This document shows positions 24,196 through 58,854 of a DNA stretch of 64,000 nt, in pieces. The notes beneath the pieces were generated by a model. That model searched no databases. It saw nothing but the letters and a program-made list of their open reading frames with translations, and was not told where the DNA came from. Position 1 is the first letter of the stretch; the number at the start of each line of letters is the position of its first letter. The stretch is taken from the NCBI GenBank assembly GCA_051313645.2, contig JBNRSN020000023.1, positions 77,128,001-77,192,000 of the forward strand. The letters run 5' to 3'. The translations under genes and the position numbers were made by a program. Source of the stretch: Centroscyllium fabricii (Eukaryota).

Positions 24196-25518
24196 GCTCA
24201 GTGTAAGCTCGAGGAACAACACCTCATCTTTCGATTGAGCACTTACAGCCTTCCAGACTCAACATTGAGTTCAACAATTTCAGATTATAACCTCTGCCCC
24301 CAGTGTTTCAGACAGCAGGTGTTGCTGATGATTCTGCTGTTCCCATTTACACCTCCTCTAGACCCATCTTTTGTTTCTTAACTTGTCCCATTACCATCTC
24401 CTTTTGCCTTGCACCAACATCCTTTTTGTCATTTAATCTCCTGTCTACCACCCTAGGACAGGCCATCCCTTTCTTATTTTCTCCCCTCCCCTCTTTCCCT
24501 GCCTCTGTTCTTGCTTAAAACCTGTAGCAACTCTAACTTTTTCCAGTTCTGATGAAAGGTCACCAACTTGAAACATCTGGGGGTAATTTTTACGGAAGCG
24601 CTGGAACCTGGCGGGGATTGGTCTGGGCGGCTTCCGGTCCCGCCCGCCCAACCAGCTGGGAAGCCCACGCAATTTTAGGTTAATGAGGTTGTTAAATCCC
24701 CATCGGCGGGAGCGGGAGGTAATTAGGTTATTCGAGTCAGGCTGCAGCGGAGCTGCGAGCACTTTGATTGACAGTTCCAGCACTGGTTGTTGTCAGTTCC
24801 CATGGCAACACTCCACTGTGACATCGCAGTGGAGTGGAGCCAATGGGAAAGGCCAAGTGCTGGTGACTGACAGGTGGGCGGGCGGGCTCCGAATTGCTCA
24901 CAGCTCGCAGCGGCTGTGAGGCCATTGTGAGAACTGAGATTGCTCAGTTTCTGTTCTCAGCTGATACTGAAGGCGGAACGGAGTTACTATCTCCTCTAAG
25001 GTGCCGGAGGCATGCCAAGCATTTGGCAGCATGCCCTTCATACCTTAAAGGAGAAAGTAATAAATTCAGGAAGTCATACAACACCAGGTTATAGTCCAGA
25101 AGTTATAAGCAGCGCTGTGCTCCCACTGTGTTTCACCCAGCGGGGTTTAAGGTGGCGGGGTTAGGGCGGAAAACGCGGCAAAATGGCTAAGGGCCCTTAA
25201 AATGACATTAAAGATGCCAATTAAGGGCCCTTAACGAGGTGACAACCCATCCCCGCTGGTCGGCGGCGGGAAGGTTTCGGGGCGGGGAATCTGGCCGGGT
25301 GAAAATGAGAAAGCGGCGGGGGTCCGGCGGGGAGGGGCGGGACCCGCCGGTTCCGCTATTTTGCTGGCCGGGCCGCCGAAAACCCCGCCTCACGGGGACA
25401 TGAAAATTCCCCCCATTAACTCTGTTTCTCTCTTCACAGGTGCTGTCTGACCTGCTGAGGGTTTCCAGCATTTTCTGTTTTGATTTCAGATTTCCAGCAT
25501 CGGCAATATTTTGCTTTT
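24196..25518 (+). mobile_element. Penelope 3' end and pLTR split by a MITE
   Basis: KLEEQHLIFRL; hammerhead CTGATGA..GAAACAT resumes as TAACTCTG at 25417. Confidence 0.8.
24577..25413. mobile_element. Harbinger-type MITE, family A
   Basis: GGGGGTAATTTT / AAAATTCCCCC termini, probable CAT TSD; inverted homologue at 57255-58447. Confidence 0.78.
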
Positions 25519-27422
25519 GGACCCATTATACTGCCCGCCCGATATTGGGTTCCACGAACATCAGTAGAGCTGAATAACTGGCGGGGCCCCGTACACCAGA
25601 CGGTCGATGCAATAGCATCCACTTCCCGCCACCACGCAAGATGGTATTTTTGATGCAGGTAGGTTGGGAGTGTCAAGTGACCAATAGGTTAGCTCAGGGC
25701 GGCGGGGTCATGGGTCAAGGAGACACAGGGTGGAATTTTCATTGAGGAGTTGGGTAGGAGGTGGGACTACAGCTTTCAGGGTTTCAGCTCCGTCTCCATC
25801 GAGTTCTAGCCAACCCACGCGATTTTGACTTGATTGAACTTGCTGAGCCCGCCCTTCTAAAACGGGAGGGGGCCTAGCGCAGCTGGGCCACCGGGGATTG
25901 GAGTGCCGGCAAAAGAGCCCGGCACTCGAGAGAAGTGCTGGACTCACGGAGTGCAGCCGGCACTCTGTGGGTGGGGGTGCGGGTCAGGAGGCCGGGGACG
26001 CTAGAGGCCGGGGACGGTAGAGGGGGCAGGTGCTAGCAGACGGCCAGCAACAAAAATGGCCGCCCGTCACCGCTCCTTTAACTTGCGCTGCCCCGGCTGC
26101 AAGTACGGCCCCCAGCTGACCCTGTCGGATGTTGCGTCCGGTGGTAAGTCAGGGGGTGCTACTGAATATCATGGCCAGGGCGCGAGCAGGGTGCTAACGG
26201 CTACCGCCACCACCAGCCTCCAGCTGAATTTCACAGGAGGTGTGGGCAGCGCCATTTCCAGGCGCTAGGTGCTTTGCGCCTTATGCGCGCCCCTCCTAGG
26301 CCGCTAACGGCTTGCGCAAGCAACGTAATTTCTCCCCCATTAAAATTAAGGGTCTGTATATGCTTTCTACAAGATGTCCGCACCATCTGCATTAATTATT
26401 TACCCTACATCTCATGTCTCCTCCCACTTGCTCTTCTCATGTTTGGTTTTGCTGCGCCTGTTGCGATTTTATATATTGCTGTCCGTTGACGTTTTTTAAT
26501 AACTGCCTTCGACTGCCCGGGCCCGGGGTAATGCTGAGCTCTTTGAAAGACCACTGGCTGCTGCTGAGACTGTGAACAGGCCTTTTGAATCACGGAAACC
26601 TATGGCACGGAAGGAGGCCACTCAGACCGTCGTGCCTGTTGCTGGCTGTTTGAAAGAACGGTCGTGTTTAGTCCCGCACCCCCGCCTTTTATCTGTAATC
26701 CTGTAAGTTCCTCGTCCTCGAGTGACCGCCCAACTCTCTTTTAACATTATTTGTAGCGTTCCCTTGTAGAGTTCCATTTTTGTTGCTCATATACTTGTCA
26801 GCATGGAGATTGTTTGTTTGCTTTTTTTGGTTTTGCTTGAAGTGTGCAAGCTGGTACGGATCTGCCCTAACACCCTGAGTCCCAACATAGAAAGTTAAAA
26901 CCCTGCTGGGATATTTAAATAACTATAAGGAACTGCAACTGCAGGAGTTCTAGCTCTGTGGGTGTAAGAAGCCCTTGGGGGTGATTTTCGCCGAGTACTT
27001 TAGGTGCTAAAGAATAACAACATAGCGAGAAGATTTGAGTACAGGAGCAAGGATGTCTTGCTGCAGTTGTACAGGGCCTTGGTGAGACCACACCTTGAGT
27101 ATTGTTTGCAGTTTTAGTCACCTTATCTGAGGAAGGATGTTCTTGCTATGGAGGGAGTTCAGCGAAGATTCACCAGGTTGATACCTGGGTTGGCAGGAAT
27201 GCCGGATGAGGAGAGATTGGGTCGATTGTGCTTATACTCGCTGGAGTTTAGATGATTGAGAGGGGATCTCATTGAAACTTTAAAAATTCTTGCAGGCCTG
27301 GACAGACTAGATGCAGGAAGGATGTTCCCGATGGTGGGGGGAGTCCAGAACCAGGGGTCACAGTCTAAGGATAAGGGGTAAGCCATTTAGGACAGAGATG
27401 AGGAGGAATTTCACAGGTTCAA

Positions 27423-29992
27423 TGTTGTGCTGGTAGCAACAATAAATAGTCGGACACAGATCAACAACAAACAAGAGGTCTTTACTCGGCCAATGCCAAG
27501 GGGGAAACTGAATACAACTTGCAGTACAGCGCTATTTATACCATGTGGCCTAAAGAGGTATTACAGTAATCTTCCACCGTACACAAAATAGTGCAGCTCT
27601 GTTATAGGCTCACAGGCTGTCCATCATACGCCTTATCACATACACTACATCCCTCCCCTTTTGGATAATACGCCGCCCCTTGTCTTACAGAGAAGGTACA
27701 TTATTACAACAGTTAAGAGAAAACTAATTAACGTAACAATCGGTTAATCTATACCAACATTTTTAACTGACATTGTACAAGAGTGTGTTAAACATTTTTA
27801 CAATGGCAGTACGTATAATTGTCCTCAACAGTTTAACCCACATCTTTCAGCTTAGTTCTTCCCTTACGATGATTTTGTTTCGGTCTTTCAACATCATTTA
27901 CGAATTCTAGGGCACTCTCGTAGCCATGATCTCATTGAATGGCGGAGCAGGCTCGAAGGGCCGAATGGCCTACTCCTGCTCCCAGCTTCTATGTTTCTAT
28001 GTTTCTATGTAGTCCTCTGGCGGTGTTAACTTCTTCAAGGGAGGCAGATTTTGGTACACCGTCGTTTGCTGTGACAATTTACCCAACTGGGTTTGCATGT
28101 CCTGCAGTTGTTGCTTGAACTCACCACCATCAGTTTTAGCTTTGTCTGTCCATAGCTTAGGGTGGTTTCTAAAGTCGACTTCCCGAGTGGAAATCTCTGA
28201 CTGCCATTCTACAAATGGTATGACTGAGCGCAATCCGTCAAGTAGGCTTTGCATGTCCAACCTCTGTCGGTCCACTTTGTCCACACACGCACATAAATCC
28301 CCTTCTAATTTTTCGACTCTCTCCTCATCCTGGTTGCGAGTTTGCAGGTTTGGTCTGCCTAGTTCACCGTCTTCTGCTGGGGGAATTGTGTTGTTCAGTG
28401 AGTCCCAGTCTATAGTGAGTCCCTGGTACTTCCTTGCATTCAACTTCGGGCTACCCCCACTGCTGTTTTTGTTTGTTCTACAGACTCTTGCAATATGGCC
28501 TAACTTGCCACATCGCTGGCACGTCATGTCTCGGAACCAACAACTAGTGTGAGCGTGGTTTGATCTGCCACACCGGTAGCACTTGGTGGATTGAAGTATG
28601 CCTACCAGTGCATCATGGCTTGGTTCTCCAGCAGAAGTTATGTCGAACGCTTGCTGCAAGGTCAGCTGCCGCTTTGTTAATAACTGTCTCTGGGTGGCTT
28701 TATCACTCATGCCACAGGCCAACTTGTCTCTCAAGGTATCCATCAAAACATCTCGAAACTGGCAATTCCTCACTAATCGGCGCAGTTCAGCCAAGTACAC
28801 CGCTATCTACTCCACTCTGCGTTGGGTGTGTCGATAAAAATGGTATCTTTCCGCGATTACAGACAATGCTGAACTGAAATGGTCATTTAGCGTTTTTACA
28901 ATCTGGTCAAATGATTTATCCGTTGGCTTCTCTGGGATAATCAGGTCTCTCAAAAGTCCGAAAGGTTGTGGACCCATGCAATTTAAAAGGGTCACTGCTT
29001 TTTGGTCTGCCGACACCCCATTTATTTGAAAACAAATTTCTACTTGTTATATATAAGTGTCCCAGTCTTCCTCACTGGCATCAAATGGAGCAATGAATAA
29101 TCCCGTCAACATTTCGAGTGCTCTGTTCATGTCGTTTGAGCACACCACAAAAAACTCTCAGGAAAATATTTTCAAAATGGCGTCTTCACGCCCTTTTCCC
29201 CAAGATGGCGTATTTTGCGCCCTTTTCCTCCAAGATGGCGTCTTTCGCGCCTTCTTCTTCTTCCTCGCAATGTCTCCGCGGTAATCTCCCAATATTTTCT
29301 TGTAGGCTTCCCGCCTTTCGCTAGGCTTCCCGCCTTCTTCTCCACCACAGTTTCTACGCGGTAATCTGCTTCTGCCCCGCTATATCCCCGTGGTCTACTC
29401 GGTGGTGGTGGTGTCCGTTTTCACTCGCGGTAGGTCCTCGCTACCCAGTTAAAGTGTTCGCCCCGTTTCCCCCACCGGGAGTTTCCCGAATCACCTGGTC
29501 CAAACTCTGTGGCTTCGGGCCTACCTGGCCCCTGGAAGTTCACCGTACCTTTCCTGGTCCGTTGTCCTGTGGCTGGAGAATCAACCGCGATTCTCGACAG
29601 CTTCCTGACGGCTGTGTCCGTTTGCTGCTTTGGGCTGTACTGCTCGGTCGATGCCCAATTCTCAAGACTGTCTGCTGGAGAAGTCTTTCTTTTCCAAACT
29701 GCTTCCGTGCTGCAACAGTGATGGCTGTGCTATAGCTAATGAATTCTTCCACTATCTCGTCGCCAGTGTTATGCTGGTAGCAGAATAAATACTCGGACAC
29801 AGATCAACAACAAACAAGAGGTCTTTACTCGGCCAACGCCCAGGTGCAAACTGAATACAACTTGCAGTACAGCGCAATTTATACTAGGTGGCCTAAAGAG
29901 GTATTACAGTAATCTTCCACCATACCCAAAATAGTGCAGCTCTGTTATAGGCTCACAGGCTGTCCATCATACATCTTATCACATACACTACA
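27423..29992 (-). mobile_element. Gag-only (non-autonomous) Mag-like LTR retrotransposon
   Basis: LTRs 27423-27649 and 29767-29992; PBS TGGCGACGAG (tRNA-Ser-like); PPT AAGGGGAGGGA; TSD TTCAA/TTCAC. Confidence 0.9.
27833..29130 (-). pseudogene. gag: Gag with two CCHC-type knuckles and a C-terminal extension; two stops and an 89-bp CR1-tail insertion
   Basis: FDASEEDWDTY, AERYHFY, LRDKLACG, CYRCGRSNH..C, CQRCGKLGHIARVC; frame is restored when insertion 27924-28012 (TSD GTAG) is removed. Confidence 0.82.
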
Positions 29993-30579
29993 TTCACCAG
30001 AGTGGTGAACCTGTGGAATTCTCTACCACAGAAGGCCATTGAGGCCAATTCATTAAATATATTCAAGGAGTTAGATATATTTCTTAAGGCTCAAGGGATA
30101 CGGGGAGAAGGCAGGAACAGGGCACTGAATTTGGATGTTCAGCCATGATCTCATTAAATGGTGGAACAGACTCAAGGGGCTGAATGGACTACTCCTGCTC
30201 CTATCTTCTCTGTTTCTAACAGCAACTTGTATTTATATAGCGCTGTGGCGGCACGCCCACTGGGACACCGAATCCGCCACGGGAACTCCGCGGAGCAGAG
30301 CCCCGCTCATCCAGGTGACGCGACGACGTCACCACGTCTGCCGAAGCGATGACGTCACCAACCGCGGGACTGTTTAAATATGCTTGTTGCGAGTGGTTCA
30401 CACTCTTTCTTGTTTAGCTCTAGTGTATTAAAGTTGTGTTTTCTCTAGCTCTGGCTCATGTGTGGTTCCTAGGCCTGGCAGGCGCTACAGTGGTGACCCC
30501 GAATTGGAACGACTTCCAAAGTAGAAAAGCTGCCGCAGGATCTGGGACCACCAGCCAAAGAACTTTTTAAACAGAAAAC

Positions 30580-33336
30580 ATGGCAAGACCAAGGAACCAA
30601 GCTCCACGAACGCAAGGACTTGGCCAGAACTTCGGACGTGGACTAACTCTACCCGAGTTCTGGGAGCAACGGCCAGCGGCCTGGTTTATGTGCATCGAGA
30701 CCAGCTGCCGCACACATGGCATCCAGGGGGACGACCGCTACGACCTGGTGTTCTCAGCCCTACCGCAAACGACGATCGATCGGATGTGGTCAAAAATACA
30801 GCGTGTGCCCACTACAGGCAGGTACGAATCCCTTAAGGCCGCGCTTATAATTTTTTTTACCCCCTCTCAATTTGAGCGCGACTGCCAGCTCCTTGACCTC
30901 CCCGAACTCGGGGACGCAGGCCCATCGGACCTCTTAGGTCAGATGCAACCGCTCACACCCAATCCGGCCTCCCTGTTCCACACCGTCTTCCTCCTTAAAT
31001 TACCCTGCTCCATCAGACCGGCCTTGGCGGCCCTTGGCCAACGGAGCGATGACGAGCTCGCGGAGGAAGCCGACAGGCTCATGGAGGCGCAGCGCACCCG
31101 CTCAACCACGTGCGACCCTAACTCCGCATCGGTAGAGCGCAGCCAATCATCCCCCAGGCCCACCTTCACGCCTGAACCTAGGGCCCCGCGCCCACCTAAG
31201 CAACCGCGTCCCTCTAGCACCGGCAGGTGCTACTACCACACGCGTTTCGATAACAAAGCGCACCGCTGCGTCCAGCCATGCGCGTTCAAGCCACGGCCCA
31301 ACTCAGCCCCCACCATGTCTGTAGGCCACACAGGAGCACTGCTCTTTGTTACAGACAGAGGCACAGGCCTTAGGTTCCTCTGCGACACAGGCGCGCAGCA
31401 CAGCATCGTGCCAGCCTCCCCTGCAGAAACCAAACAAGGCACCCGGGGCCCGCCACTAGCGGCGGCCAACGGCTCCAGTATCAAAACGTACGGCACCCGC
31501 AAGCTCACTATTACTCTTGCAAGCCACACGTGCACCTGGGATTTCGTCACAGCCCAGGTCACCTCACCCCTCCTCGGGGCAGATTTCCTCTGCGCCTACG
31601 GCCTACTGGTCGATGTGACCCGGCGCCGCTTGGTCAACATAAATAATATGACGACCATCCCATGCTCCATGGGGCCCGCACTCCTGGCCCACGTGGCAGC
31701 CCAATGCCGCTCACGGAACTCCGATGCCTACGGCACACTACTCGCAGAGTTCCCTGCCCTAACCAACCCCACGTTCACCGCCCGCCGGGCCAAACACGGG
31801 GTAGAACACTTTATTACGACCACAGGCCCGCCCGTCCATGCCCACGCCCGTAGGCTCGACCCGGCCAAACAGGAGATCGCGCGCACCGAGTTCCGCACCA
31901 TGGAGCAGCTCGGCATTATCCGCCGCTCCAAAAGCCCCTGGGCCTCTCCGCTCCACATAGCCCCCAAGCCAGACGGGGGTTGGCGCCCCTGCGGCGACTA
32001 CCGCCGCCTAAACAACGCCACCACCCCGGATAGGTACCCCGTACCCCACATCCAGGATTTTTCCGCCAGATTAGCAGGCTGCACGATCTTTTCTAAGATC
32101 GACCTGCTGCGTGGCTACCACCAGGTTCCGGTGCACCCGGCGGACATTCTTAAAACGGCCGTCATCACCCCCTTCGGACTCTTCGAGTTCCTCAGGATGC
32201 CCTTCGGCCTTAAAAACGCGGCCCAGGCCTTCCAGCGCCTCATGGACTCGGTCCTGCGGGATCTGAAGTTCATTTTCGTCTATCTAGACGACATCCTTGT
32301 GGCCAGCACCTCCCCTCAGGAACACCTCCTGCACCTCAGGACCCTGTTCCAGCGCCTGGCCGAGCACGGTCTCATATTAAGCCCGACCAAGTGCAAATTC
32401 GGCCTCGATACCATTGACTTCCTCGGCCACCGCATTTCCCAAACAGGGGCCATACCCCTGCCCTCCAAGGTGCAGGCGGTACAGGAATTTCCCCGCCCGC
32501 ACTCCATTAAGGGGCTGCAGGAATTTCTGGGGATGGTTAATTTTTATAACCGCTTCATCCCGGGAGCAGCCGCACTCATGGCCCCTTTATACCAGGCCAC
32601 CCGTGGGCAGTCCAACAAGGCTGCAGTTGAGTGGACGGCCGACGCCACCACCGCTTTCACCGCAACTAAAACTGCCCTGGCAAACGCCACCCTCCTAGCC
32701 CACCCTAGGCCCAACGCCAGAGTAGCCCTCACCACCGACGCCTCCGACCACGCGGTCGGGGCCGTATTCGAGCAGTGGACCGGCAACTCGTGGCAGCCGC
32801 TGGCCTTTTTCAGCCGGCAACTCCGGCCCCCAGAGGTTAAGTACAGCGCCTTCGATAGGGAGCTCCTCGCTCTCCATCTGGCAGTGCGACATTTTCGCTT
32901 CCTCCTGGAGGGCCGCCACTTCACAGCCTTCGTCGACCATAAGCCGCTCACGTTTGCGATGGCTAAGGTCGCCGAACCCTGGTCGGCCAGGCAGCAGCGC
33001 CAACTCGCGGCCGTGTCGGAATTTACGACCGACATCCAACACATTTCCGGCCGCGACAACGTGGTCGCTGACTGCCTCTCACACCCCACCATTAACGCCG
33101 CCCTAATGGCGGTCGATTACGCCCAGCTGGCCGCAGACCAGCTGGCCAACCCTGACCTGCTCAATGCAGCAGCAAATCTCCCTGGCCTCCACTTGGCCAA
33201 TATCGCACACGGTCCCGCTGCCACCGTCGTCTGCTGCGACGTATCCCAGTCGCAGCCCAGGCCCGTCGTCCCCCACGCATTTTCAAGACCCTCCATGACC
33301 TGTCCCACCCCGGCACCCGCGCGTCCATTAAATTAA
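30580..33336 (+). CDS. gag-pol: Gag-protease-RT-RNase H polyprotein (frameshift near 33280)
   Basis: CHCC knuckle [50 protein letters not shown]. Confidence 0.93.
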
Positions 33337-34394
33337 TCTCGGCCCGGTTCGTATGGCGCGGCCTGCGCAAGGACGTTCGCGCCTGGGCCAGCTCCTGCAT
33401 TGCCTGCCAGCGCTCCAAAGTGCATAAGCACATCAGGGCACCGCTGGAAACTTTTAAAGTACCGGCCAGACGCTTTGACCGCGTCCATATCGACCTCGTC
33501 GGGCCACTACCGCCATCCCGGGGCCACACGCACGTGATGACCATGGTCGACCGCAACACTCGCTGGCCAGAAGCAGTCCCCCTCACCGCCACCGGCACCA
33601 CGGACTTGGCCAGGGCGTTCATCGCCACCTGGGTCGCCCGCTTCGGCGTGCCCACAGACATCACCTCCGACAGAGGACCCCAGTTTACGTCGGCATTATG
33701 GGCGGCCATCGCCCGTGACCTCGGGGTGACACTACATCGAACCACCGCATACCACCCACAAGCGAACGGGCTATGCGAACGGTTCCACCGCTCAATGAAG
33801 GCATCACTACGAGCCACACTCAAGGACGCGTCGTGGACCGACCGCCTTCCATGGGTTCTCCTCAGGCTGCGCTCGGCAGTCAAGGAAGACCTAAACGCCT
33901 CGGCAGCAGAACTCATCTACGGCCAAACATTAACAGTGCTGGGCGAGTTCCTAGCTGAGCCCAACGCTCCCTGGTCAGCCGACCAGTATTTAAAAGACTT
34001 TGCCAACCCGGCATGAGCTTTCCAGCCACTACCAGTGGCCCGGCACGGAGAGCCGGCAGCTCGGGAGCCGGACGGCATCAAAAACGCTAAATTTGTGTTC
34101 GTCCGGCGCGACGGACACCGATCTCCACTACAGCCACCGTACGATGGCCCCTACAGAGTGCTTCGGGCGGGAGCTAAAGCTTTTGAAGCACAAATGGGCA
34201 ATAGAACTGAAACTGTGACAATAGACCGGCTCAAGCCGGCACACGTTATAGCGGGCGAGACGACGGTCCCCGCACAACCACCACAACGCGGTCGCCCTCC
34301 CGCAACAAAACCCGCCCACACTCCACCGCAGAACCAGAAGCAACAGGCAACACGGTCCGGCCGCATTATCCGGCCACCACAACGGCTCACATAG
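33280..34394 (+). pseudogene. Integrase (HHCC, DDE, GPY) with TGA at 34014
   Basis: HPG..CIAC, HIDLVGP, SDRG, YHPQANGLCERFH, PYDGPYRV. Confidence 0.9.
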
Positions 34395-34880
34395 ACTCTT
34401 TTACTATTCCTCCCGGACGGATTCTGGGGAGAGCTGTGTGGCGGCACGCCCACTGGGACACCGAATCTGCCACGGGAACTCCGCGGAGCAGAGCCCCGCT
34501 CATCCGGGTGACGCGACGACGTCACCACGTCTGCCGACGCGATGACATCACCAACCGTGGGACTGTTTAAATATGCTTGTTGCGAGTGGTTCACACTCTT
34601 TCTTGTTTAGCTCTAGTGTTTTAAAGTTGTGTTTTCTCTAGCTCTGGCTCACGTGTGGTTCCTAGGCCTGGCCGGCGCTACAGCGCCTTCATTGTAGTAA
34701 AACGTCCCGCGGGCGCTTCACAGGAGCGATTATCAAACGACATTTGACACCGAGCCACAGAAGCAGATATTAGGGCAGGTGACCAAAAGCTTGGTCAAAG
34801 AGGGAGGTTTTAAGGAGTGTCTTAACGGAGGAGAGAGAGGTAGCGAGGCGGAGAGGTTTAGAGGGAATACCAAAGCTTAG

Positions 34881-35288
34881 GGGCGGCACGGTGGCACAGT
34901 GGTTAGCACTGTTGCCTCACAGCACTGGAGACCCGGGTTCAAATCCAGCCTTGGGTACTAACTGTGTGGAGTTTGCACATTCTTCCCGTGTTTGCGTGGG
35001 TTTCCTCCGGGTGCTCCGGTTTCCTCCCACAGTCCAAAGATGTGCGGGTTAGGTTGATTGGCCGTGATAAATTGACCCTTAGTGTTAGGGGGATTGAATA
35101 TGTGGGGTTACGGGGATAGGGTGGGATATGTGTCCGTGCAGGCTCGAGAGGGATCGAGGGATATGGGGACAAGGCAGGGACAGGGTACTGAGTTTGGATG
35201 ATCAGCCATGATCTCATTGAATGGCGGAGCGCGCTCGAAGGGCCGAATGGCCTACTCCTGCTCCTATCTTCTATGTTTCTATGTTTCT
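34881..35288 (+). mobile_element. Full-length HE1-type V-SINE
   Basis: A and B boxes, V-domain, CR1 tail; flanked by CTTAGGG-like duplication. Confidence 0.92.
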
Positions 35289-40511: not shown

Positions 40512-40569
40512 TCATCAGCAAACTTAGATATATCACACTCAATACCTTCATCTAAGTCATTGATGTAGA

Positions 40570-44685: not shown

Positions 44686-45732
44686 ATTGATTTCGATGAG
44701 TCACCCTTATCCATTGTCCAAAGCTTCGAGGTTGGGACCACTTCATAGCAATCAGGAGTGGGAGGCCTGGTTGATATTCCCTTTCTTGTGCCTGCCGAAG
44801 CAGCATTACGGCCATCCCGTCTGAGAGCAGCTAACACAGCTAACACTTCTGAATGAAGACAGGGGGGAAAATTGACAGTCACGGAACCCAACGTGAGTTG
44901 GTACCTTCAGGAGAGGAGGCGGCAAGGAAGGTGTTGAAGTATGAGACATAACCCTGGCCGGCAAAGAGTTACTATTTCTAGTTAACAATGTGCAAATACT
45001 GTATCACTTTTCTAACCTTGTATTTGTGGAAGCAATTTTGCCAGTCGACATTGAGCCATGGATCATGTGGCAAACCTCTATAATTGGCTAAATGGATACA
45101 GGCTATTTATCTTGGCTGTCGGCTTATGCATTAGTGCTTCAGGCATGAATTCTGATTGAAATGTTTGAACACAGGAGGAAAAAAAATTGCTATACCTCAT
45201 TCCTTTTAACAGAACGAGTTTTGATCCTTCACGCTAAGGACACAACAGTAGAGAATTTGCCACAACAAAGCACAAACTGACAACCACCCCACTTTTGGGA
45301 AAATAGGGACACCTGGGACAAAGGAGGCTCTGTTTCAAATGGGGCCTTAAAACACTCAAGAAACTCAATACCATCCAGGACAGAACAGTTGCCCCCTTCC
45401 ATTTGGAATTGATATCTGCACTCCCCATCACTCTTTTTTGGCTGCAGTGTGCACGATCTACTGAACGCACTGCAGCAAATCACCAAGGTTACTTTGAGAG
45501 CACCACCCTCCCCCGTGACCACTACCACCATCAAGGGCAAGAGCAGCAATGCCGGAGGAGCACCCATCACCTCCGTTGCCCTCCGAGTTGGCATGCCATC
45601 CTGATTTGGTTCCAGGGATGAGGGCATACAGCTACGATAGCAAAAATACTGTGGATGCTGGAAATCTGAAATAACAACAGAAAAAGCTGGAAAAACTCAG
45701 CAGGCCAGGCAGCATCGGTGGAGAGAGAACAG

Positions 45733-46617
45733 AGGGGGGGAATTTTAGGAGGTCCCTGAGTGCGGGTTTTTGGCCGGTCAGTTTCAAAAATTCCAATCCG
45801 GCGGGCGGGAAAGCACCCCGCCGGATCCCCGCCCATTTGGGATTTTCGTTGGGTGGGTTTTCCCGCCCCGCATTTCTCCCACCCGCCGCTGGCGGGGATA
45901 CAGATTGAGGTCGTTGAGGGCCCTTAATTGGATGGCTAATCCTATTTTAAGGGCCCTCAGCTATTTTAGCCCTCTTCCCAACCAAAACCTGCCTGGTGAA
46001 AACTCGCCGTTAAAAAGGTGATGGGAACCCAGGCGGCTGGGTGTCTACCACCTTCAAGGCATGGGCACAGCACTCACACAGCAGCTTGCTAGCCTCCACC
46101 ATGCTGGAGGTGCAGTTGCCACCCAAGGGTGAGAAACTTCAGGGCCTAAAACATTGAAATCATTCATCTTCAACTCGCTCCTATTTAACAGACATCGCGC
46201 TGCAGCGCTGTGTCTGTGACCAAGCTGTCAATCACCCAGGGGATCAGTTTCTGTTTACATTCCATTGAAACCACAAACAAGCATGACTCACTTCAACTGT
46301 TTGTTTCGTGGTTTCAAGTGGTTCTTTCAAAGTCTGACTCACACGGCTATGTAAACATAGGAACAAAGGCAACACTTCAGATCTGTCAGTCAAGCTTAGT
46401 GAGTTCTTACTACTCAGGCCTGTCAATCAACAGCCCGCCCAACTCAAACTGTGAATGTAAAGGGCTTTGCTCCCGCCCATTATTGTGTATTGGGAGCCCG
46501 ACTGTTCGGTGGGGATTTAATTGGCCACTTGAGCCAAAATCTCTCGGGCCTCCCAGGTCCATGAAAACTGACCCGCCCAAAACCCGCCAGCTTCCAACAG
46601 CTTTTTTAAAATTCCCT
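45733..46617. mobile_element. Harbinger-type MITE, family B
   Basis: AGGG..AATTTT / AAAATTCCCT termini, 3-bp TSD CAG at 45730-45732 and 46618-46620. Confidence 0.85.
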
Positions 46618-46620
46618 CAG

Positions 46621-46656
46621 AGTTAACGTTTCAGGTCGAACCCCTTCTTCAGAACT
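46621..46656 (-). ncRNA. Minimal hammerhead ribozyme
   Basis: AGTT-CTGAAGA-AGG GGTTCGA CCT-GAAA-CGTT-AACT; helix II is short. Confidence 0.65.
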
Positions 46657-48750: not shown

Positions 48751-49424
48751 ATTATATCTCCATTTCTCTGTCATGACTAGGTTACCGGTTACTGACCTGG
48801 AATTCCCTACTCAGCACCACCACCACAAGGACTACACTGGTTCAAGATGAAAGCCCACCACACCCTCCTCAGGGCAACTAGGGGTGAGCAAAAAATGCAA
48901 CTTTGCCACTGCCACCCAGAACCCGAGATGAATCTAAAAATGAATGAGAAAATTTAGATTCACATCAGCTTAATCTACCAAACGTGACATTTAATTAGCT
49001 ATCTCATGTCATCTATCCAGTATTTTGCCCTCAGGGTTTTAAATGAAGCTGATATTTTGGTGCATTGTTGAATTAAATATTTCAACTGAAACTTTAATTT
49101 CATTCCTCCCCGATTGTCAAAATTGGAAAGCTATGAACGGGACTAACTCTACAAGGATTAGCAGGTTGGAATGAATTGAACAGCACTGCAGTCGTCAAGA
49201 TATGGGAAATGACACTACCTACAGAATAACAGAGTGAGCTACAGGCTGGAATCTAATCGAGGACTGCAGATTGTTTATACACAGTCACAGACACCATGGG
49301 ATGATTTACGGGTTGGAAACTAACTGAGGGGTTCAGAAGGCTTATAGATAGAATAATGGATACTTGGGAGTGAGTTAGAGGCTGGAATCTGATCAAGGTG
49401 TTCAGGTGATTTATATATTCAGGC

Positions 49425-50640
49425 TTGAGATGATAAGTGGCAGGTAACATTTGCACCACACAAGTGCCAGGCAATGACTATCTCCAACAAACGTGAGTCT
49501 AACGGGCGGCACGGTGGCACAGTGGTTAGCACTGCTGTCTCACAGCACTGGAGACCCGGGTTCAAATCCAGCCTCGGGTACTATCTGTGTGGAGTTTGCA
49601 CATTCTCCCCGTGTCTGCGTGGGTTTCCTCCGGGTGCTCCGGTTTCCTCCCACAGTCCAAAGATGTGCGGGTTAGGTTGATTGGCCATGATAAATTGACC
49701 CTTAATGTTAGGGGGATTGAATATGCGGGGATAGGGTGGGATATGTGTCGATGCAGGCTCGATAGGGATCGGGGGATATAGGGAGAGGGCAGGGGCGGGG
49801 TACTGGGTTTGGATGATCAGCCATGATCTCATTGAATGGCGGAGCAGGCTCGAAGGTCCGAATGGCCTACTCCTGCTCCTAGTTTCTATGTTTCTATGTT
49901 TCTATGTTTCTAACCACTGCCTTGTGACATTCAATGGCATAACCATCGCCAAATCCCCCACCATTAACATCCTGGGGGGTCACCATTGACCAGGAACTTA
50001 ACTGGACCAGCCACATAAATACTGCGGTAACAAGGGCAGGTCAGAGGCTGGGTATTCTGCGACGAGTGTCTCACCTTCTGACTCCCCAAAGCCTTTCCAC
50101 CATCTACAAGGCACAAGTCAGGAGTGTGATGGAATACTCACCACTTGCCTGGATGAGTGCAGCTCCAACAACACTCAAGAAGCTCGACACCAGACAGGAC
50201 AAAGCAGCCCGCTTGATTGGCACCCCATCGACCACCTTAAACATTCACTCCCTCCAACACCGGCGCACCGTGGCTGCAGTGTGGACCATCTACAAGATGC
50301 ATTGCAGCAACTCACCAAGGCTTCTTTGGCAGCACCTCCCAAACCCGCGACCTCTTCCACCTAGAAGAACAAGGGCAGCAGGCGCATTGGAACACCACCA
50401 CCTCCAATTTCCCCTCCAAGTCAGACACCATCCTGACTTGGAAATATATCGCCATTCCTTCATCGTCACTGGGTCAAAGTTCTGGAACTCCCTACCTAAC
50501 AGCACTGTGGGAGCACCTTCACCACACGGGACTGCAGCGGTTCAAGAAGGCGGCTCACCTTCACCTTCTCAAGGGCATTTAGGGATGGGCAATAAATGCT
50601 GGCCTTGCCAGCGACGTCCACATCCCATGAATGAATTTAA
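49425..50640 (+). mobile_element. CR1-group LINE 3' end with HE1 SINE (49504-49908) inserted
   Basis: Homologous to 5410-6210; SINE TSD TCTAAC. Confidence 0.88.
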
Positions 50641-50669
50641 AAAAAAATATAGAGCAATGGATACCCGGG

Positions 50670-53105
50670 AATGTCTGCGGGATGGTTTTTTGGAACAATA
50701 TGTCGAGGAACCAACCAGAGACCAGGCCATCCTTGACTGGGTATTATGTAACGAGAAAGGAGTAATTACCGATCTTGTGGTAAGGGGCCCCTTGGGTCTG
50801 AGTGATCATAACATGATCGAATTCCTCATTAGGATGGGGAGTGAGGTAGTGGAATCAGAGACTAGGGTCCTGAATCTAAATAAGGGAAACTATGATGGTA
50901 TGAGGTGCGAACTGGGTAAGATTGACTGTGGGATGTCACTCAAAGGGTTGACGGTGGATGGGCAATGGCAAATATTCAAAGGCTGCATGGATGAACTACA
51001 GAAGTTGTTCATCACAGTGTGGCACAAGAATAAAACAAAAAGGGTAACGCAACCGTGGCTGACGAGAGAAATTAGGGATAGCATAAGATCAAAGGAAAGG
51101 GCATATAACCTGGACTAAAAAGCGGTAACCCTGAGGATTGGGAACAGTTTAGGATTCAACAAAGGAGGACAAAGGGATTAATTAAGAAGGGGAAAATAGA
51201 ATATGATAGTAAACTTGCAGGGAATATAAAAACTGACTGTAAGAGCTTTTATAGATATGTAAAGAGGAGAAGATTGGTGAAATCAAGTGTAGGTCCCTTA
51301 CAGTCAGAAGCAGGGGAAGTGATAATGGGGAACAAAGAAATGGCAGACCAATTAAATGCATATTTTGGCTCTGTCTTCACAAAGGAGGACACAAGTAACC
51401 TCCCAGAGATATTGGGGAACATAAGGTTTGATGAAGGGGAGGAACTGAAGGATATCTGTATTTGCAGGGAAATGGTGTTAGGGAAATTGATGGGATTAAA
51501 GGCCGGTAAATCGCCAGGGCCTGATAATCTACATCCTAGGGTACTTAAGGAAGTGGCCCTAGAAATAGTGGATGCATTACTGATTATCTTCCAGCAATCG
51601 ATGGAATCTGGAACTGTACCCATGGATTGGAGGGTGGCTAATGTTACCCACTATTCAAGAAGGGTGGTAGGGAGAAAGCAGGAAATTACAGACCAGTAAG
51701 CCTGACATCGGTAGTGGGGAAGATGCTGGAGTCCATAATAAAGGATGTAATAGCTGAGCACTTGAAAATCAGTGGCAGGATCGGACAAAGTCAACATGGA
51801 TTTACAAAAGGTAAATCGTGATTGACTAATCTGCTGGAATCTTTTGAGGATGTAACTGGGAAAATTGATCAGGGAGAACCAGTAGATGTGGTATACTTGA
51901 ACTTTCAGAAGGCGTTCGACAAGGTCCTGCACAAGAGACTAGCATATAAAGTTAGGGCATATGGGATTGGGGGCAAGGTATTGACTTGGATTGAGATTTG
52001 GTTGGCGGACAGAAAGCAGAGAGTGGGAGTGAATGGGTCTTTTTCCGGGTGGCGGGCAGTGATTAGTGGGGTACCGCAGGGATCGGTCCTGGGACCCCAG
52101 CTATTCACAATATACATTAATGATTTAGAAAAGGGAACTAAATGTAATGTCTCCAAGTTTGCAGATGACACAAAGCTGGGAGGGCGTATGTGCTGCGAGA
52201 AGGATACCAGGAAGCTCCAGGATGATTTGGACAGGTTGGGCGAGTGGGCCGAGACATGGCAGATGCAGTATAATGTGGATAAATGCGAGGTTATCCACTT
52301 TCGGGGAAAAAACTGAAATGCCGACTATTATCTGAATGGCAATAGATTGGGAGAAGGGGAAGTACAATGAGACCTGGGTGTCCTGGTGCACCAGTCACTG
52401 AAGGTGAGCATGCAGGTGCAGCAGGCGGTTAAGAAGGCAAATGGTATGTTGGCCTTCATAGCGAAAGGGTTCGAGTACAGGAACAGGGAGGTCTTGCTGC
52501 AGTTGTACAGGGCCTTGGTGAGACCACACCTTGAGTACTGTGTGCAGTTTTGGTCTCCTTATCTAAGGAACGACGTTCTTGCCATGGAGGGAGTGCAGAG
52601 GAGATTCACCAGGCTGATACCTGGGATGGCAGGATTGACGTATGAGGAGAGACTGGGTAGACTGGGTTTGTACTCTCTGGAGTTTAGAAGATTGAGAGGG
52701 GATCTCATCGAAACGTATAAAATTCTAACTGGTCTGGACAAACTTGATGCAGGAAGAATGTTCCCGATGGTCGGAGAGTCCAGAACCAGGGGTCTTAGTC
52801 TAAGGATAAGGGGTAACTCATTTAGGACAGAGATGAGGAGGAATTTCTTCACCCAGAGAGTGGTGAACCTGTGGAATTCTCTACCACAGAGGGCGGTGGA
52901 GGCTAGTTCATTCAATATATTCAAGAAGGAGCTGGATGTATTTCTTAAGGCTAGAGGGATCAAGGGATACGGGGAGAAGGCAGGGACAGGGTACTGAGTT
53001 TGGATGATCAGCCATGATCTCACTGAATGGCGGAGCAGGCTCGAGGGGCCGAATGGCCTACTCCTGCTCCTATCTTCTATGATTCTATGTTTCTATGTTT
53101 CTATG
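50670..53105 (+). mobile_element. Longest CR1/HER1 copy: ORF2 from endonuclease end to tail, with stops and frameshifts
   Basis: PTRDQAILD, SDHN, KSPGPDNLHPRVLKE, FQKAFDKV, SGVPQGSVLGP, KFADDTK; (TTTCTATG)n tail. Confidence 0.95.
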
Positions 53106-53957
53106 AGTGAGTTACAGGCTGGAATCGAGGCATTCAGATGGTTTATATATCGAATAATGAGCACCTGGGAGTGAGTTACAGGCTGGAATCCAATTAATGG
53201 GGTTCAGATAGTTTATACAGTATAAGGAATAATGGATATCTGTGACTGAGTCACAGATAGTCGATGCACAGGAAGAATGGGCATATTCAGGAAATAATAT
53301 CGGAAATAAAGGGATGGAACAGAGAAAATGGGGCAGATCTCAACTTTATGCGATAGTGTAGAACGTGTGAAATCAATGGGAATGTAAATCGGGAAAGAAG
53401 CAAAACAGGGTGACGGCTCACTATCTGCCATTTTACACGATCACCCAAAGTCAACCCTAATCCATCCCAATCAGTTCTGCGTAGAAAGATTGTCTGCAAT
53501 TTTCCTGCAGTGAGTTTTCCCCACTGGCCAATGTTGAGTTGTGTGTCAGGCTTTGCCAGCACTATCAGGATAAAGTGCTCCCTACAGTTAGGCAGTGTTC
53601 CAAAAAAAAAAAATCTTGTTCGGAGACATTTGATCCCTATTTTAGCTTCTAGCTACGTAATTGGTGCTACTTTACTCTGAAAATCCTTTGTGCTTTGAAA
53701 GTGTAAACACACCACCCTGACCACTCTTCCTCCTCTGTACCTCCTCACTGTGTTGAAATTAAGATTTATCTCCTACTTTTATTCTTTTATACAAACTCAA
53801 CACTATGGAACTCCTCACTTTCCCTTCCTTCAGCAATTTGCAGGCTCAAAGTCTCAATCCTGATGGCAGCCAATCAAGATTTCTCTCATTATCTCTTTTG
53901 ATTGTATTTTCTAAAATATTCATTCGTGGGGTGTGGCCATCACTGGCAAGGTTGGCA

Positions 53958-54714
53958 TTGTGCGAACAACCTGGCACTGAACACCAAGAAAACTAAGGAG
54001 ATCATAGTGGACTTCCGGAGGACTGGAAGCAGAAGACACACCCCCATCTTCATCCAAGGGGCTGAGGTGGAAAGGGTGTCCAGCTTCAAGTTCCTCGGGG
54101 TCCACATCTCGGAAGACCTCTCCTGGTCACTAAACACCTCCTCTCTGGTTAAGAAGGCTCAACAGCGCCTGTACTTCCTAAGGAAACTGAAGAAAGCCAG
54201 GCTGTCATCTGGCATCCTCTCCAACTTCTACCGCTGCACAATAGAAAGCATACTGACAAGCTGCATCACTGTCTGGTATGGTAATTGCACTATCTCGGAC
54301 CGGAAAACCCTGCAGCGGGTAGTCAAAACTGCCCAACGAATCACCGGTACACAGCTACCGTCAATGGAAAGCATCTACCTCAAACGCTGTTTACGGAGGT
54401 CTCTGAACATTATTAAAGACCCCACACACCCCAGCCACAGTCTGTTCGCCCCCCTGCCCTCCGGGAGACGCTACAGATCAATTCGCACCCGCACGACTAG
54501 ATTTAAGCACAGCTTCTTCCCCAGGGCTGTCAGCCTCCTGAACTCTAAATAAATAAACTCCGGTACCTGCACGCCTGATAATGTACTTTACTGTATGCAA
54601 TTTGCATGTAATTTATTTGCACTACTCTCGGGAGAGTCGAGTCTTCGTCTCGTTGTATTGTACTAGTACTCTGCAATGACAGTAAAACTTGAATTGAATT
54701 AAATTGAATTGAAT
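53958..54714 (+). mobile_element. Rex1/Babar LINE 3' fragment
   Basis: Near-identical to 39752-40511; (TTGAA)n tail. Confidence 0.92.
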
Positions 54715-54799
54715 TTAGTGCCCATCCTTTAGTTGCCCTGAAAACGTGGAGTTGGGCCAACTGAGTGGCATTGCTGGGCCACTTCAGTGTGCAGTCAAG

Positions 54800-55530
54800 A
54801 TTGCAGTTCTGGTATCCATATTTAAGAAAGGACATACTTGCTCTCGAGGCAGTGCAAAGAAGGTTCACTCGGTTGATTCCGGGGATGAGGGGGCTGACAT
54901 ATGAGGAGAGGTTGAGTAGATTGGGCCTCTACACATTGGAGTTCAGAAGAATGAGAGGCGATCTTATCGAAACATATAAGATTGTGAAGGGGCTTGATCG
55001 GGTGGATGCGGTGAGGATGTTCCCAATGGTGGGTGAAACTAGGACTCGGGGGCATAGTCTTAAAATAAGGGGCTGCCCTTTCAAAGCTGAGATGAGGAGA
55101 AACTTCTTCAGTCAGAGGGTGGTGGGGCTGTGGAATTCGCTGCCCCAGAGAGCTGTGGAAGCTACTACATTGAATAAATTTAAAACAGAGATAGACAGTT
55201 TCCTGGAAGTAAAGGGAATTAGGGGTTATGGTGAGCGGGCAGGTAAGTGGACGTGAGGCTAGGTTCAGATTGGCCATGTGATCTCCTGGACCAGTTTTCA
55301 ATCGCCTGGATGGGTCGGAGAGGAATTTTCCAGATTTTTTCTCCCAAATTGGCCACTGGGGTTTTTATCTGTTTTTTCGCCTCTCCCAGGTGATCACATG
55401 GGTTTGGGTGGGGTGGAGAGTTAAAATAAAATTGAGGTTAGGATCAGATCAGCCATGATCTTGTCGAATGGCGGAGCAGGCTCAAGGTGCCGACTGGCCG
55501 ACTCCTGCTCCTGTTTCTTATTTTCTTATG
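54800..55530 (+). mobile_element. CR1 3' fragment (subfamily with longer 3'UTR)
   Basis: QFWYPYLRKDILALEAVQRRFTRLIPG...FFSQRVVGLWNSLP. Confidence 0.88.
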
Positions 55531-55926
55531 CAAAAAGTCACACAACACCAGGTTTATAGTCCAACGTTTTATTTTAAATCACAAGCTTTCGGAGCGATGC
55601 TCCTTCCTCAGGCGGCAGAAGAGACTGATTTGAAGATCACACATATCGGAGGAAGGGAGAAATCCGACCTCTTCCCCTAGAGCACACAAGCATATTAGCA
55701 TACCTTAACCTTAAGGTATGCTAATATGCTTGTGTGCTCTAGGGGAAGAGGTCGGATTTCTCCCTTCCTCCGATATGTGTGATCTTCAAATCAGTCTCTT
55801 CTGCCGCCTGAGGAAGGAGCATCGCTCCGAAAGCTTGTGATTTAAAATAAAACGTTGGACTATAAACCTGGTGTTGTGTGACTTTTTGCATTTGTCCACC
55901 CCAGTCCAACACCGGCACCTCCACAT
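55528..55926. mobile_element. Penelope pLTR insertion forming a perfect inverted repeat
   Basis: 181-bp arms 55528-55708 and 55711-55891, CC spacer, 35-nt tail, 13-bp TSD TTATTTTCTTATG. Confidence 0.92.
55804..55840 (+). ncRNA. Minimal hammerhead ribozyme (mirror copy at 55579-55615, minus strand)
   Basis: CCGC-CTGAGGA-AGGAGC ATC GCTCC-GAAA-GCTT-GTGA. Confidence 0.78.
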
Positions 55927-56161
55927 TATTTTCTTATGTTCAATGATTGCTGTGGGTCTGGAGTCACATATAGGCCAGACCGGGTAAGGGCGGCAGATTT
56001 CCTTCCCTGAAGGACATCAGTGAACCAGTTGGGTTTTTACGACAATCCGATAATTTCATGGTCACCATTACTGACACTAGCTTTTAATTTCCAGATTTGT
56101 TAAACTAAATTCAGATTCTCAAACTGCTATCCTGGAATTTGCACGCATGTTCTCTGGATTG

Positions 56162-56865
56162 ATAGAAACATAGAAGCAGGAGTTGGCCATTCGGCCCCTC
56201 GAGCCTGTTCCACCATTTAATGAGATCATGGATGATCATCCAGATTCAGTACCCTTTCCCTGCCTTCTCCCCATATCCCTTGATCCCTTTAGCCTTAAGA
56301 AATATATCTAACTCCTTCTTGAATATATTCAATGAATTGGCCTCTACTGCCTTCTGTGATAGAGAATTCCACAGGTTCACCACTCTCTGGGTGAAGAAAT
56401 TCCTCCTCATCTCAGTCCTAAATGGCTTACCCCTTATCCTTAGACTGTGGCCCCTGGTTGTGGACTCCTCTGGCCATCGGGAACATCCTTCCTGCATCTA
56501 GTCTGTCCAGTCCTGTTAGAATTCTATAAGTTTCGATGAGATCCCCTCTCATTCTTCGATATAAGCCTAATCGACCCAATCTCTCCTCATATGTCATTCC
56601 TGCCATCCCAGGTATCAGTCTGGTGAATCTTTGCTGCACTCTCTCCATGGCAAGAACTTCCTTCCTCAGATAAGGTGACCAAAACTGCACACAATACTCA
56701 AGGTGTGGCATCACGTACACCCTGTACAACTGCAGCAAGGCATCCTTGTTCCTGTACTCGAACCCTCTTGCTATGGAGGACAACATACCATTTGCCTTCT
56801 TAACCGTCTGCTGCACCTGCATGCTTACCTTCTGTGACTGGTGCACAAGGACGACCAGGTCTCGT
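56162..56865 (-). mobile_element. CR1 3' fragment
   Basis: VKKANGML..PHLEYCVQFWSPY..FFTQRVVNLWNSL. Confidence 0.9.
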
Positions 56866-57183
56866 CATCAGTGAGAATGGTGATTAAAAACATCTACCCA
56901 CCATAGTGCAAATTAAAAACTGCAACAAACATCTTTTAAACCATGTACAGCTGATCAAATTTTTTTTAAATCCAATTTCTAATCAATGCATGCCCACAGA
57001 CCCCTGAAGGTAGCAGGACAGTAGATAAGGTGGTTAAGAAAGCATATGAGATACTTTCTTTTATCAGCCAAGTCATAGAATATCAGAGCAGGGAGGTTAT
57101 GCTTGAACTGTATAAAACACAAGTTACGCCACAGCTAGAATACTGCGTACAGCTCTGGTCACCACATTAAAGGAAAGATGTGA

Positions 57184-58854
57184 AATAACAACAGAAAATG
57201 CTAGAAAAACTCAGTAGGCCAGGCAACATCCGTGGAGAGAAATATAGAGCAATTGGGGGGATTTTCATGTCCCCGTGAGGCGGGGTTTTCGGTGGCTCGG
57301 CCGGCAAAACAGCACAACCAATGGGTCGCGACCCCCCTGCCATATCCCCTCCGCTTTATCATTTTCCCCCGCCCTGATTCCCTGCCCCGAAGCCTTCCTG
57401 CCGCCAGCCGGCGGGGATGGGTTGTCACCTCATTAAGGGCCCTTAATTGGCATCTTTAATGGGTGGCACGGTGGCACAGTGGTTAGCACTGTTGCTTTAC
57501 AGCACTAGGGACCCGGGTTCAAATCCAGCCTCGGGTACTATCTGTGTGGAGTTTGCACATTCTCCCCGTGTCTGCGTGGGTTTCCTCCGGGTGCTCCAGT
57601 TTCCTCCCACAGTCCAAAGATGTGCGGGTTAAGTTGATTGGCCATGATAAATTGACCCTTAGTGTTAGGGGGATTGAATATGTGGGGTTACGGGGATAGG
57701 GTGGGATATGTGTCGGCTCGATAGGGATTTGGGGACAAGGTGGGGCGGGGTACTGGGTTTGGATGATCAGCCATGATCTCATTGAATGGCGGAGCAGGCT
57801 CGAAGTGCCGAATGGCCTACTCCTGCTCCTATCGTCTATGTTTCTATGTTTCTATGTTTAATCACATTTTAAGGGCCCTCAGCTATTTTGAGCTGTTTTC
57901 CACCCTAACCCCGTCACCTTAAACCCCGCTGGGTGAAACCCAACTGGAACACAGCACTGGTCATTACTTTCTCCTTCAAGGTGTGAAGGACATGCTGCCA
58001 AATGCTTGGCATGCCTCCAGCACCTTAGAGGAGTAAGTCACTCTGTGGTGGCTGCACCAGCGGTGAGCAAAAACTGAGAAATCTCAGCTTTGCACATTTG
58101 CTCACAGCCGGTGCCGAGCTGTCAAGGATTCAGAGCCCGCCCGCCCACCTGTCAGTCACCAGCACTTGACCTTTCCCATTGATTCCACTCGACTGTGATG
58201 TCACAGTGGAGTGTTTCCATGGGAACTGTCAACAACCAGTGCTGGAACTGTCAATCAAACTGCTCGATCCCCGCTGCAGCCCGACTCGATTGAGTTAATT
58301 ACCACCGGCTGCCACATGCGGGGATTTAATAACTCAAATAAATTTAAATTGCGTGGGCTTCCCACGTGTTTGGGTGGGTGGGCGGGACAGGAAGCCGCCC
58401 AGACCAATCCCCGCCATGTTCCCGCACTTACGGCAAAGTCCACCCCCATGTTTCGGGTTAGGTCCCTTCGTCAAGACTAAAGCAACAAAATGAAACAGGT
58501 AGGAAGGCCGGGGTAGTTGGGAGGGAACAAAGGGAAGAGAAAACAGAAGAGAGAAGACATTAAGAGGTATTCAAAATGAGATGAGATGCTGATGGGGCTG
58601 TGGGCAGGAGATAGCTGTAGATTAGGTGTGAAAAGCACTGGCAGAATGGGAGGCGGCTGCCATGAGAGAAAGAGAAAAAAAAGGTGAAATAAAAGGTGTG
58701 GATAAAAATATAATGGGGGCCGAAGTTATGATCTGAAATTGTTGAACTCGATATTGAGTCCGGAGGGCTGTAATGTGCCCAATCGGAAGATGAGGTGTTG
58801 TTCCTCGAGTTGTTATTTCGGATTTCCAGCATCTGTAGTATTTTGCTATCGTAC
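57184..58854 (-). mobile_element. Penelope 3' end and pLTR inserted in CR1, split by a MITE
   Basis: 13-bp TSD AGGAAAGATGTGA at 57171-57183 and 58855-58867; short inverted pLTR piece at 58810-58850. Confidence 0.8.
57255..58447. mobile_element. Harbinger-type MITE, family A, with nested HE1 SINE (57461-57856)
   Basis: Inverted homologue of 24577-25413; TSD ATT/ATG; SINE TSD TTTAAT. Confidence 0.8.

Follow-up and report, generated by a model that had tools for sequence, protein, structure and literature searches.

Harbinger-type transposons recurrently split predicted Penelope hammerheads at the cleavage triplet in the shark Centroscyllium fabricii

Dada DNA transposons and Tx1-clade long interspersed nuclear elements (LINEs) are known to insert again and again at a single place in a multicopy sequence, and they are nearly target-exclusive. 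Among Harbingers, the reconstructed zebrafish element Harbinger3_DR has the target consensus AAACACCWGGTCTTT (PMC3016246; this and the papers below are cited from their accessible parts). A minimal hammerhead from Schistosoma showed no self-cleavage as a monomer and low activity as multimers (PMC4209133). Here we describe where these two worlds meet. In C. fabricii, the cleavage triplet of the predicted hammerheads in Penelope pseudo-long terminal repeats (pLTRs) is a large hotspot at which several families of Harbinger-type MITEs (miniature inverted-repeat transposable elements) insert with single-base precision. The analysis started from a stretch of 64,000 nucleotides, the window, on contig C745 (JBNRSN020000023.1, positions 77,128,001 to 77,192,000) of the 7.21-Gb genome; all positions refer to this window. 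Judging from CR1/SINE tails, the repeat content looks typical of sharks.

Three split hammerheads and their Penelope hosts

The original prediction placed three Harbinger-type MITEs in or beside hammerheads, two of a family A (A1 and A2) and one of a family B. All three elements and their hosts were found at these places. The element ends were fixed by comparison with 148 other copies, which gives the following features, including the target site duplications (TSDs).

24205..24290, + strand: 3′ end of the frameshifted Penelope open reading frame (ORF) of the A1 host, from translation (GIY-YIG C-terminus, ...KLEEQHLIFRL...; the same peptide ends GIY-YIG-matching ORFs in loci L241 and L243)
24545..24578, + strand: 5′ part of hammerhead 1 (minimal), with helix I strand AGTT and a decayed helix II
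24549-24555, + strand: core CTGATGA of hammerhead 1
24570-24574, + strand: GAAAC of hammerhead 1, followed by the left TSD copy AT(C)T at 24575-24578
24579..25414, + strand: A1, a family A Harbinger MITE of 836 bp with the ends GGGGGTAATTTT / AAAATTCCCCCC
25415..25500, + strand: right TSD copy ATT, which is the cleavage triplet, then the AACT strand of helix I and the remaining pLTR 1
45680..45733, − strand: downstream section of pLTR 3; its TSD copy AGA occupies 45731-45733
45734..46618, + strand: B, a family B Harbinger MITE of ~885 bp at the +6 secondary site
46619..46656, − strand: TSD copy AGA (46619-46621), then the intact core of hammerhead 3 (CTGAAGA...GAAAC GTT AAC)
57194..57253, − strand: downstream section of pLTR 2; its TSD copy ATT occupies 57251-57253
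~57254..58446, − strand: A2, a family A-related MITE with a short interspersed nuclear element inside at ~57461-57855 (blastn against A1 and window repeats)
58447..58478, − strand: 5′ part of hammerhead 2 with AGTC, core TTGACGA, helix II, GAAAC and TSD copy ATG
58729..58812, − strand: 3′ end of the Penelope ORF of the A2 host
1..91, − strand: intact pLTR hammerhead, the empty-site reference
19858..19947, + strand: second uninterrupted pLTR, core decayed
21960..22854, + strand: second family B copy, in non-pLTR DNA, an internal control

A1 and A2 are 77-86% alike and both break a minimal hammerhead directly after GAAAC. The duplicated target, at first read as CAT, is the N-U-H triplet itself: ATT at A1 and ATG/ATT at A2. 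The left copy at A1 carries one extra C. B does adjoin the third hammerhead; its duplication is AGA (TCT on the ribozyme strand) and not CAG, and it lies 6 bp downstream of the triplet. By tblastn, no transposase match was found in the window or within the A and B copies; a single match lay in the flank of locus L108.

Upstream of the A2 and (frameshifted) A1 hammerheads lies the Penelope 3′ peptide ..LEEQHLIFRLGTLQPSGLNIEFNNFRS, for which the genome holds 58,032 first-look candidates; none was found within 250 bp upstream of B's host hammerhead. Two of three ORFs ending in the host peptide match PF01541 (E 1.4e-4 and 3.8e-4; 22.5 and 21.1 bits against a cut-off of 22.6), and the third gave no PF01541 match. 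A scan of the same three ORFs for reverse transcriptase families gave no match; these ORFs are partial, with no full-length element among them. By its sequence, the split motif is a putative minimal type I hammerhead with CUGANGA, GAAA-N-N-UH and helices I and II. Among 18 strictly parsed intact copies, CUGANGA occurs in 15, helix I is paired in 14-17 of 18 per position, and helix II, read from alignment rows, is AGGUC/GACCU. Fold prediction returned helices I and II at z = 0, and an Rfam search gave no hammerhead match. In 740 kb of background DNA, made up of 74 10-kb stretches from round positions along contig C1 (not strictly random and denser at 200-340 Mb), we counted 24 triplet positions. 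This corresponds to ~230,000 genome-wide, and a single exact 21-mer accounts for 38,190 occurrences.

Some pLTR features deserve mention in their own right. A subfamily (L221, L228, L277, L280 and relatives) has the core TTGACAA/TTGATAA, helix I AGTC/GACT and a GTC triplet, and may be the U3-A8 covariant that PMC4209133 names. After the triplet (window 25415-25445 and all pLTR copies) follow branch point-like, polypyrimidine tract-like and CAG acceptor-like sequences and then ATG/GTG (TTAAC-TCTGTTTCTCTCTYCACAG). The hotspot may therefore overlap the end of a Penelope intron, as PMC4209133 describes for Drosophila virilis. L255 and L266 show a second recurrent site of elements with terminal inverted repeats (TIRs), which lies within the 3′ untranslated region of Penelope, ~130 bp upstream of the triplet. 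Elsewhere in the window, 55660-55758 is a near-perfect 100-bp palindrome, probably a small MITE, whose matches to microRNA models are below the cut-off, and the arms of a 670-bp inverted repeat (92%) at 16425-17094 and 18859-19528 lie 1.76 kb apart.

A multi-family hotspot at the cleavage triplet

Family A carries short TIRs at both ends (GGGGGNAATTTT...AAAATNCCCCCC), is ~836 bp long and has copies 94.5-97.8% identical to the majority sequence. Its exact left ends number 1,978 genome-wide, and an exact 29-base left-end pattern has 1,635 matches. Family B has the terminus CCCCTC (1,617 left ends under an anchored pattern), and a third family has GGGCCAGAAATTC ends and an AT-rich target. The 3-bp TSD matches at all three positions in 46 of 82 two-ended A copies (46 of 60 with clean termini) and at two of three in 15 more. 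At hammerhead sites of known empty sequence, insertion adds the element plus 3 bp, which contradicts classification of the third family as a Spy-like element that makes no TSD. TIRs, 3-bp TSDs, high copy number and no coding capacity together mark PIF/Harbinger MITEs.

The family A sample comprised the first 90 of 100 copies listed on C1 from the 1,635 matches, chosen by the element's own ends and not by flank. When the rebuilt empty sites were aligned to the intact pLTR, those containing a pLTR scored 66-154 and the rest at most 43. A pLTR hammerhead was the target in 13 of 90 copies, 12 of them at the triplet (GAAAC|GTT, offset 0 or -1) and one at +6. Relative to background density this is an enrichment of ~4,100-fold (8-22% as the Wilson interval for the share), with a binomial P of ~2e-34 for 12 of 90 (3-bp window; 24 hammerheads in 740 kb). 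Similarity-ranked samples gave 4 of 29 for A and 2 of 29 for B (one at 0, one at +6). Genome-wide, GAAAY-RTT precedes 140 of the 1,978 exact A left ends, and ~125 of these junctions are hammerheads by eye (122 with one tandem array collapsed). Twenty doubtful junctions were fetched, yielding 7 hammerheads and 13 other sites; the other 120 were classed from six upstream bases only, and two of them were already known as CR1-type (L049, L051). The resulting one-orientation share of 6.3% agrees with 7 of 90 in the C1 sample.

The preference is common to several families. Family B had 8 clear hammerhead cases among the first 100 copies listed; these were judged visually on 13 flank bases, and the anchor used omits sites with C at -13. 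Of 30 fetched copies, 4 sat at the triplet. For the third family the count was 4 of 100, with 3 confirmed among 30 fetched copies, plus L241. Seen from the host side, 59 Penelope 3′ ends were chosen by protein after removal of the window's own; 14 end earlier, 2 are deleted across the core, and the remaining 43 hold a TIR element at the triplet in 4 cases and at ~+8 in one. Of the 24 background hammerheads, 4 are interrupted at the triplet, each by a different family, and the pooled count is 8 of 67. The specificity is not strict, with 13 of 90 (A), 8 of 100 (B) and 4 of 100 (third family) at the hammerhead.

The hammerhead insertions are independent of each other, because they occur in both orientations and do not cluster on the MITE tree. 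The shared orientation of A1 and A2, noted in the original prediction, is due to chance: 12 sampled family A insertions divide 7 versus 5, and an orientation bias is rejected. On the ribozyme strand their TSDs are GTT, ATT, TTT and GTC. Hammerhead-inserted MITEs are 92.9% identical to each other (maximum 95.6%) versus 92.1% (maximum 95.9%) for the others. In a tree built with FastTree from 108 full-length copies of A, the 17 that lie in pLTRs need 16 label changes versus 16.1 after shuffling (288 of 500 shuffles as low), and 16 of these 17 have a non-hammerhead copy as nearest neighbour; the tree is star-like with only three well-supported branches and speaks to the lack of clustering, not to deep structure. 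Both refuting conditions proposed with the original prediction were tested and neither refuted it: the enrichment far exceeds pLTR abundance, and MITEs and flanks do not co-segregate.

As possible movers, 72,583 first-look candidates for PF13359 exist genome-wide, and three of the 30 best loci share the terminal 280-300 bp of A at 72-76%. The full-length relatives L201 (7.5 kb, TSD AGT) and L202 (~5.6 kb) have A-type TIRs, are 71-76% identical to A across 105-300 terminal bases, and match DDE transposase PF13359 (E 4e-41) and PF13873 (E 4e-9). In L202, the one scanned for it, a Myb/SANT frame lies on the strand opposite to the DDE transposase frame. This layout of a DDE and a Myb/SANT gene is the one given for Harbingers in PMC9179366, a paper that, in contrast to the many candidates here, reports no Harbinger found in elephant shark. 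L201 and L202 are broken relatives and not the proven mobiliser.

The two TSD copies often disagree. In the third family they differ in 14 of 21 cases (L311-L340), typically AAT versus ATT and more than divergence allows; 8 of the 14 differing pairs are a pure middle-base A/T swap, whereas A-T changes amount to no more than 3.9%. In families A and B they differ in 14 of 60. At hammerhead sites L254, L316, L334 and L339, one copy is the host triplet and the other AAT or GAT, and differing copies also occur at L051, L141 and L396. This suggests that the transposon may carry the donor TSD along as a 5′ overhang. Carry-over of the donor TSD on the transposon end is known from piggyBac. Here it would follow from the staggered-cleavage model for mPing (PMC4561436). 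In the hammerhead at L011, an additional ATT adjoins the TSD; it may be the footprint left by an excision that preceded re-insertion.

Target sequence and competing explanations

A target logo was built from 80 non-hammerhead sites among the 148 loci (both ends, TSD at least 2/3), or 77 after removal of three abutting another MITE. It is palindromic with 6-7 bits, reading S-A-V-A-C, AT-rich TSD and G-T-B-T-S when symmetrised for the 77 sites. The preferred site is thus a palindrome of 13-21 bp, S-A-V-A-C-[HDW]-G-T-B-T-S, with the 3-bp TSD at its centre. The conserved GAAAC of the hammerhead is a perfect left half-site, and the N-U-H triplet falls in the TSD slot, followed by AACTCTG. C at the third triplet position, as in the GUC type, is disfavoured in the logo. 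GUC-type hammerheads are in fact under-used: 2 of 4 GAAAY-RTC junctions were hammerhead-like versus ~125 of 140 GAAAY-RTT junctions, with GTC in 3 of ~19 empty background sites (Fisher P 0.017, or 0.13 with five possibly decayed junctions moved over). TSD pairs ATT/ATT and TTT/TTT represent insertions into cores already without a helix III pair. Other repeats are recurrent targets as well, at 400-900-fold: a CR1-internal site took 3 of 90 insertions, a second LINE-like site 4 of 90 and others 2 of 90. Since the target is a general palindrome, other repeats also collect insertions, the GUC type is under-used and broken helix III cores are hit, a preference for the hammerhead as a ribozyme is not supported, although the preference for the hammerhead itself stands.

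Several further cues were considered and dismissed. DNA hairpin potential showed no excess at the 77 non-hammerhead sites (P 0.72), which argues against a hairpin or cruciform as a general cue; hammerhead sites fold ~1 kcal/mol better. No purine/pyrimidine skew was found extending beyond 10 bp, and G at TSD position 1 is depleted at other sites, contrary to a CpG preference at the cut. An apparent ATT-over-GTT preference (35% versus 11% for exact 21-mers, P 4e-5) vanishes against Penelope-selected empty sites (8 of 26) and is not claimed, also because left junctions may hold decayed or donor bases. As separate observations, CR1-tail insertions were seen at L023, L043 and L093, and MITEs often adjoin an older MITE end and re-use its TSD (L026, L036, L042, L043, L113, L388, L394; window 25521-26341 near A1).

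We regard it as probable that the hotspot is a sequence coincidence amplified by copy number, with Harbingers reading the triplet DNA as a good target without sensing the ribozyme. DNA sequence and not ribozyme function is the likely cue because the GUC type is under-used and broken ATT cores are hit. Several non-autonomous families would insert at the triplet since GAAAC and the TSD slot fit their target, mobilised presumably by full-length relatives with the same TIRs that encode a DDE transposase and a Myb/SANT protein. Catalysis would keep GAAAC-GUH conserved in a young and very abundant repeat and so, by coincidence, mass-produce the hotspot. A number of quantitative comparisons weigh against this explanation. 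By the weight matrix, the hammerhead ranks at the 29th-39th percentile among real sites (64th-70th when the TSD is masked), and matrix times abundance predicts 0.05-0.3% of insertions (0.7-1.3% with the TSD masked) versus 13% seen. A leave-cluster-out matrix predicts 0.2 of 90 at the hammerhead versus 12 seen. The CR1-internal site scores higher and is near its prediction (1.9 versus 3) with 8-fold fewer insertions per copy, and the +6 site, which scores similarly in the plain matrix, was used once versus 12 times. Hammerheads make up 13% of background GAAAYRTT sites but 86-89% of junctions. The matrix itself is weak, because held-out family B sites average 2.8 bits versus 7.1 in training. It is also 40-50-fold too low for two other clusters (0.1 predicted versus 4; 0.04 versus 2), which were selected for being hit, and asymmetric matrices from expectation-maximisation did not raise the predicted hammerhead share. 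An unexplained residual of 10-60-fold above the weight matrix is present, also at other repeat hotspots; a non-additive base readout, perhaps with local context, might supply it.

This excess, which remains over every matrix tried, could alternatively reflect dedicated or context-assisted targeting, in which sequence sets the register and a pLTR-specific feature adds the 10-60-fold; the pLTR would then be a genuine safe haven for insertion. Candidates for such a feature are open promoter chromatin, transcription or an R-loop, a bound factor, and a long recognition site that has evolved. The same triplet is hit by at least four Harbinger-type families with different logos, and a weak halo of insertions exists elsewhere in the pLTR (L029, L040, L073, L088, L284; 178 loci). 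However, 87% of A copies lie elsewhere, the matrix derives from 77 sites and is similarly low for other repeat hotspots, and sites beside older MITE ends are about equally hot per copy (3 of 90 with 3 background sites, both small numbers). Once the +6 site is left out, the halo shrinks to 3 of 178 versus ~0.8 expected and is marginal. We consider such targeting unlikely, and equally doubtful its strongest form, in which several shark Harbinger families evolved recognition of the catalytically constrained hammerhead core as an unchangeable, self-renewing safe haven. A retention trap, which we find improbable, would combine a moderate preference with poor re-excision of GTT-flanked copies, while copies with canonical TSDs leave precisely and without trace. 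Excision of mPing is precise and strongly lowered by a changed first or third TSD base (PMC4561436), and G at TSD position 1, found in 5 of 154 symmetrised half-sites elsewhere, is kept in 9 of 16 family A triplet insertions. Yet ATT and TTT hammerheads are filled at least proportionally (~35% of junctions versus 11-31% of empty sites), and such a trap multiplies occupancy only by the number of re-mobilisation rounds. For amplification of one or a few MITE plus pLTR composites by Penelope retrotransposition or duplication speaks one local tandem array with four identical junctions (C711, 102.95-102.98 Mb). For the bulk of copies this explanation is refuted by both orientations, five TSD types, several host subfamilies and several MITE families, and by the MITE identities and tree given above, leaving it a negligible chance as a general explanation.

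Comparison with known systems

One base position of one repeat thus takes about one eighth of a DNA transposon family, a large and quantifiable interaction between mobile elements that bears on the decay of Penelope activity and on repeat annotation in giant shark genomes. Roughly 12-17% of the predicted hammerheads carry an insertion at the scissile site and would have lost function. If the safe-haven reading held, the ribozyme would be disabled in more than one tenth of Penelope copies by a DNA transposon parasitising a retroelement where mutation is impossible. The sequence of this target before insertion is known and its insertions number in the tens of thousands, which makes target choice and end-processing of Harbingers testable from genome data alone, as with the mismatched TSDs. 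Compared with Dada transposons and Tx1-clade LINEs, most copies here lie elsewhere and the preference is common to several families.

The full-text literature, with Repbase reports and subscription journals outside its coverage, yielded no paper on Harbinger insertion into Penelope hammerheads. A preprint on animal retrozymes (10.64898/2026.07.22.740005) leaves Harbinger unmentioned in the accessible part of its main text, and the accessible part of PMC8151067 adds nothing further on targets. The hosts resemble the minimal Penelope pLTR hammerheads of PMC4209133 in the CUGANGA core, the extra nucleotide before helix II, the 4-bp helix I, the palindromic 15.2-16.2 pair without loop 3, the position downstream of a GIY-YIG ORF and the mostly solo occurrence. 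They differ in their ~230,000 copies and in the triplet-splitting DNA transposons; the accessible part of PMC4209133 mentions no such insertions.

The inserted elements share with mPing and Tourist-like PIF/Harbinger MITEs (PMC4561436) the lack of coding sequence, short TIRs, 3-bp TSD, high copy number and cognate autonomous relatives. In contrast, they are longer (0.75-0.9 kb), their target motif extends beyond TWA, and one repeat position is strongly re-targeted. Like Harbinger3_DR (PMC3016246), they have a two-gene autonomous structure and a 3-bp TSD within a palindromic consensus, whose left half-sites are AAAC/ACAC and whose right ones are GT.T. Unlike in Harbinger3_DR, the TSD is AT-rich and loose instead of CWG, and one site in another mobile element draws 8-13% of insertions, for which the accessible part of PMC3016246 contains no equivalent. 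Most likely, a known Harbinger selectivity has here met a conserved, mass-produced motif. As a mere coincidence of sequence this would be a striking extension of that selectivity, and if the residual reflected real targeting, it would be a new kind of parasitism between mobile elements.

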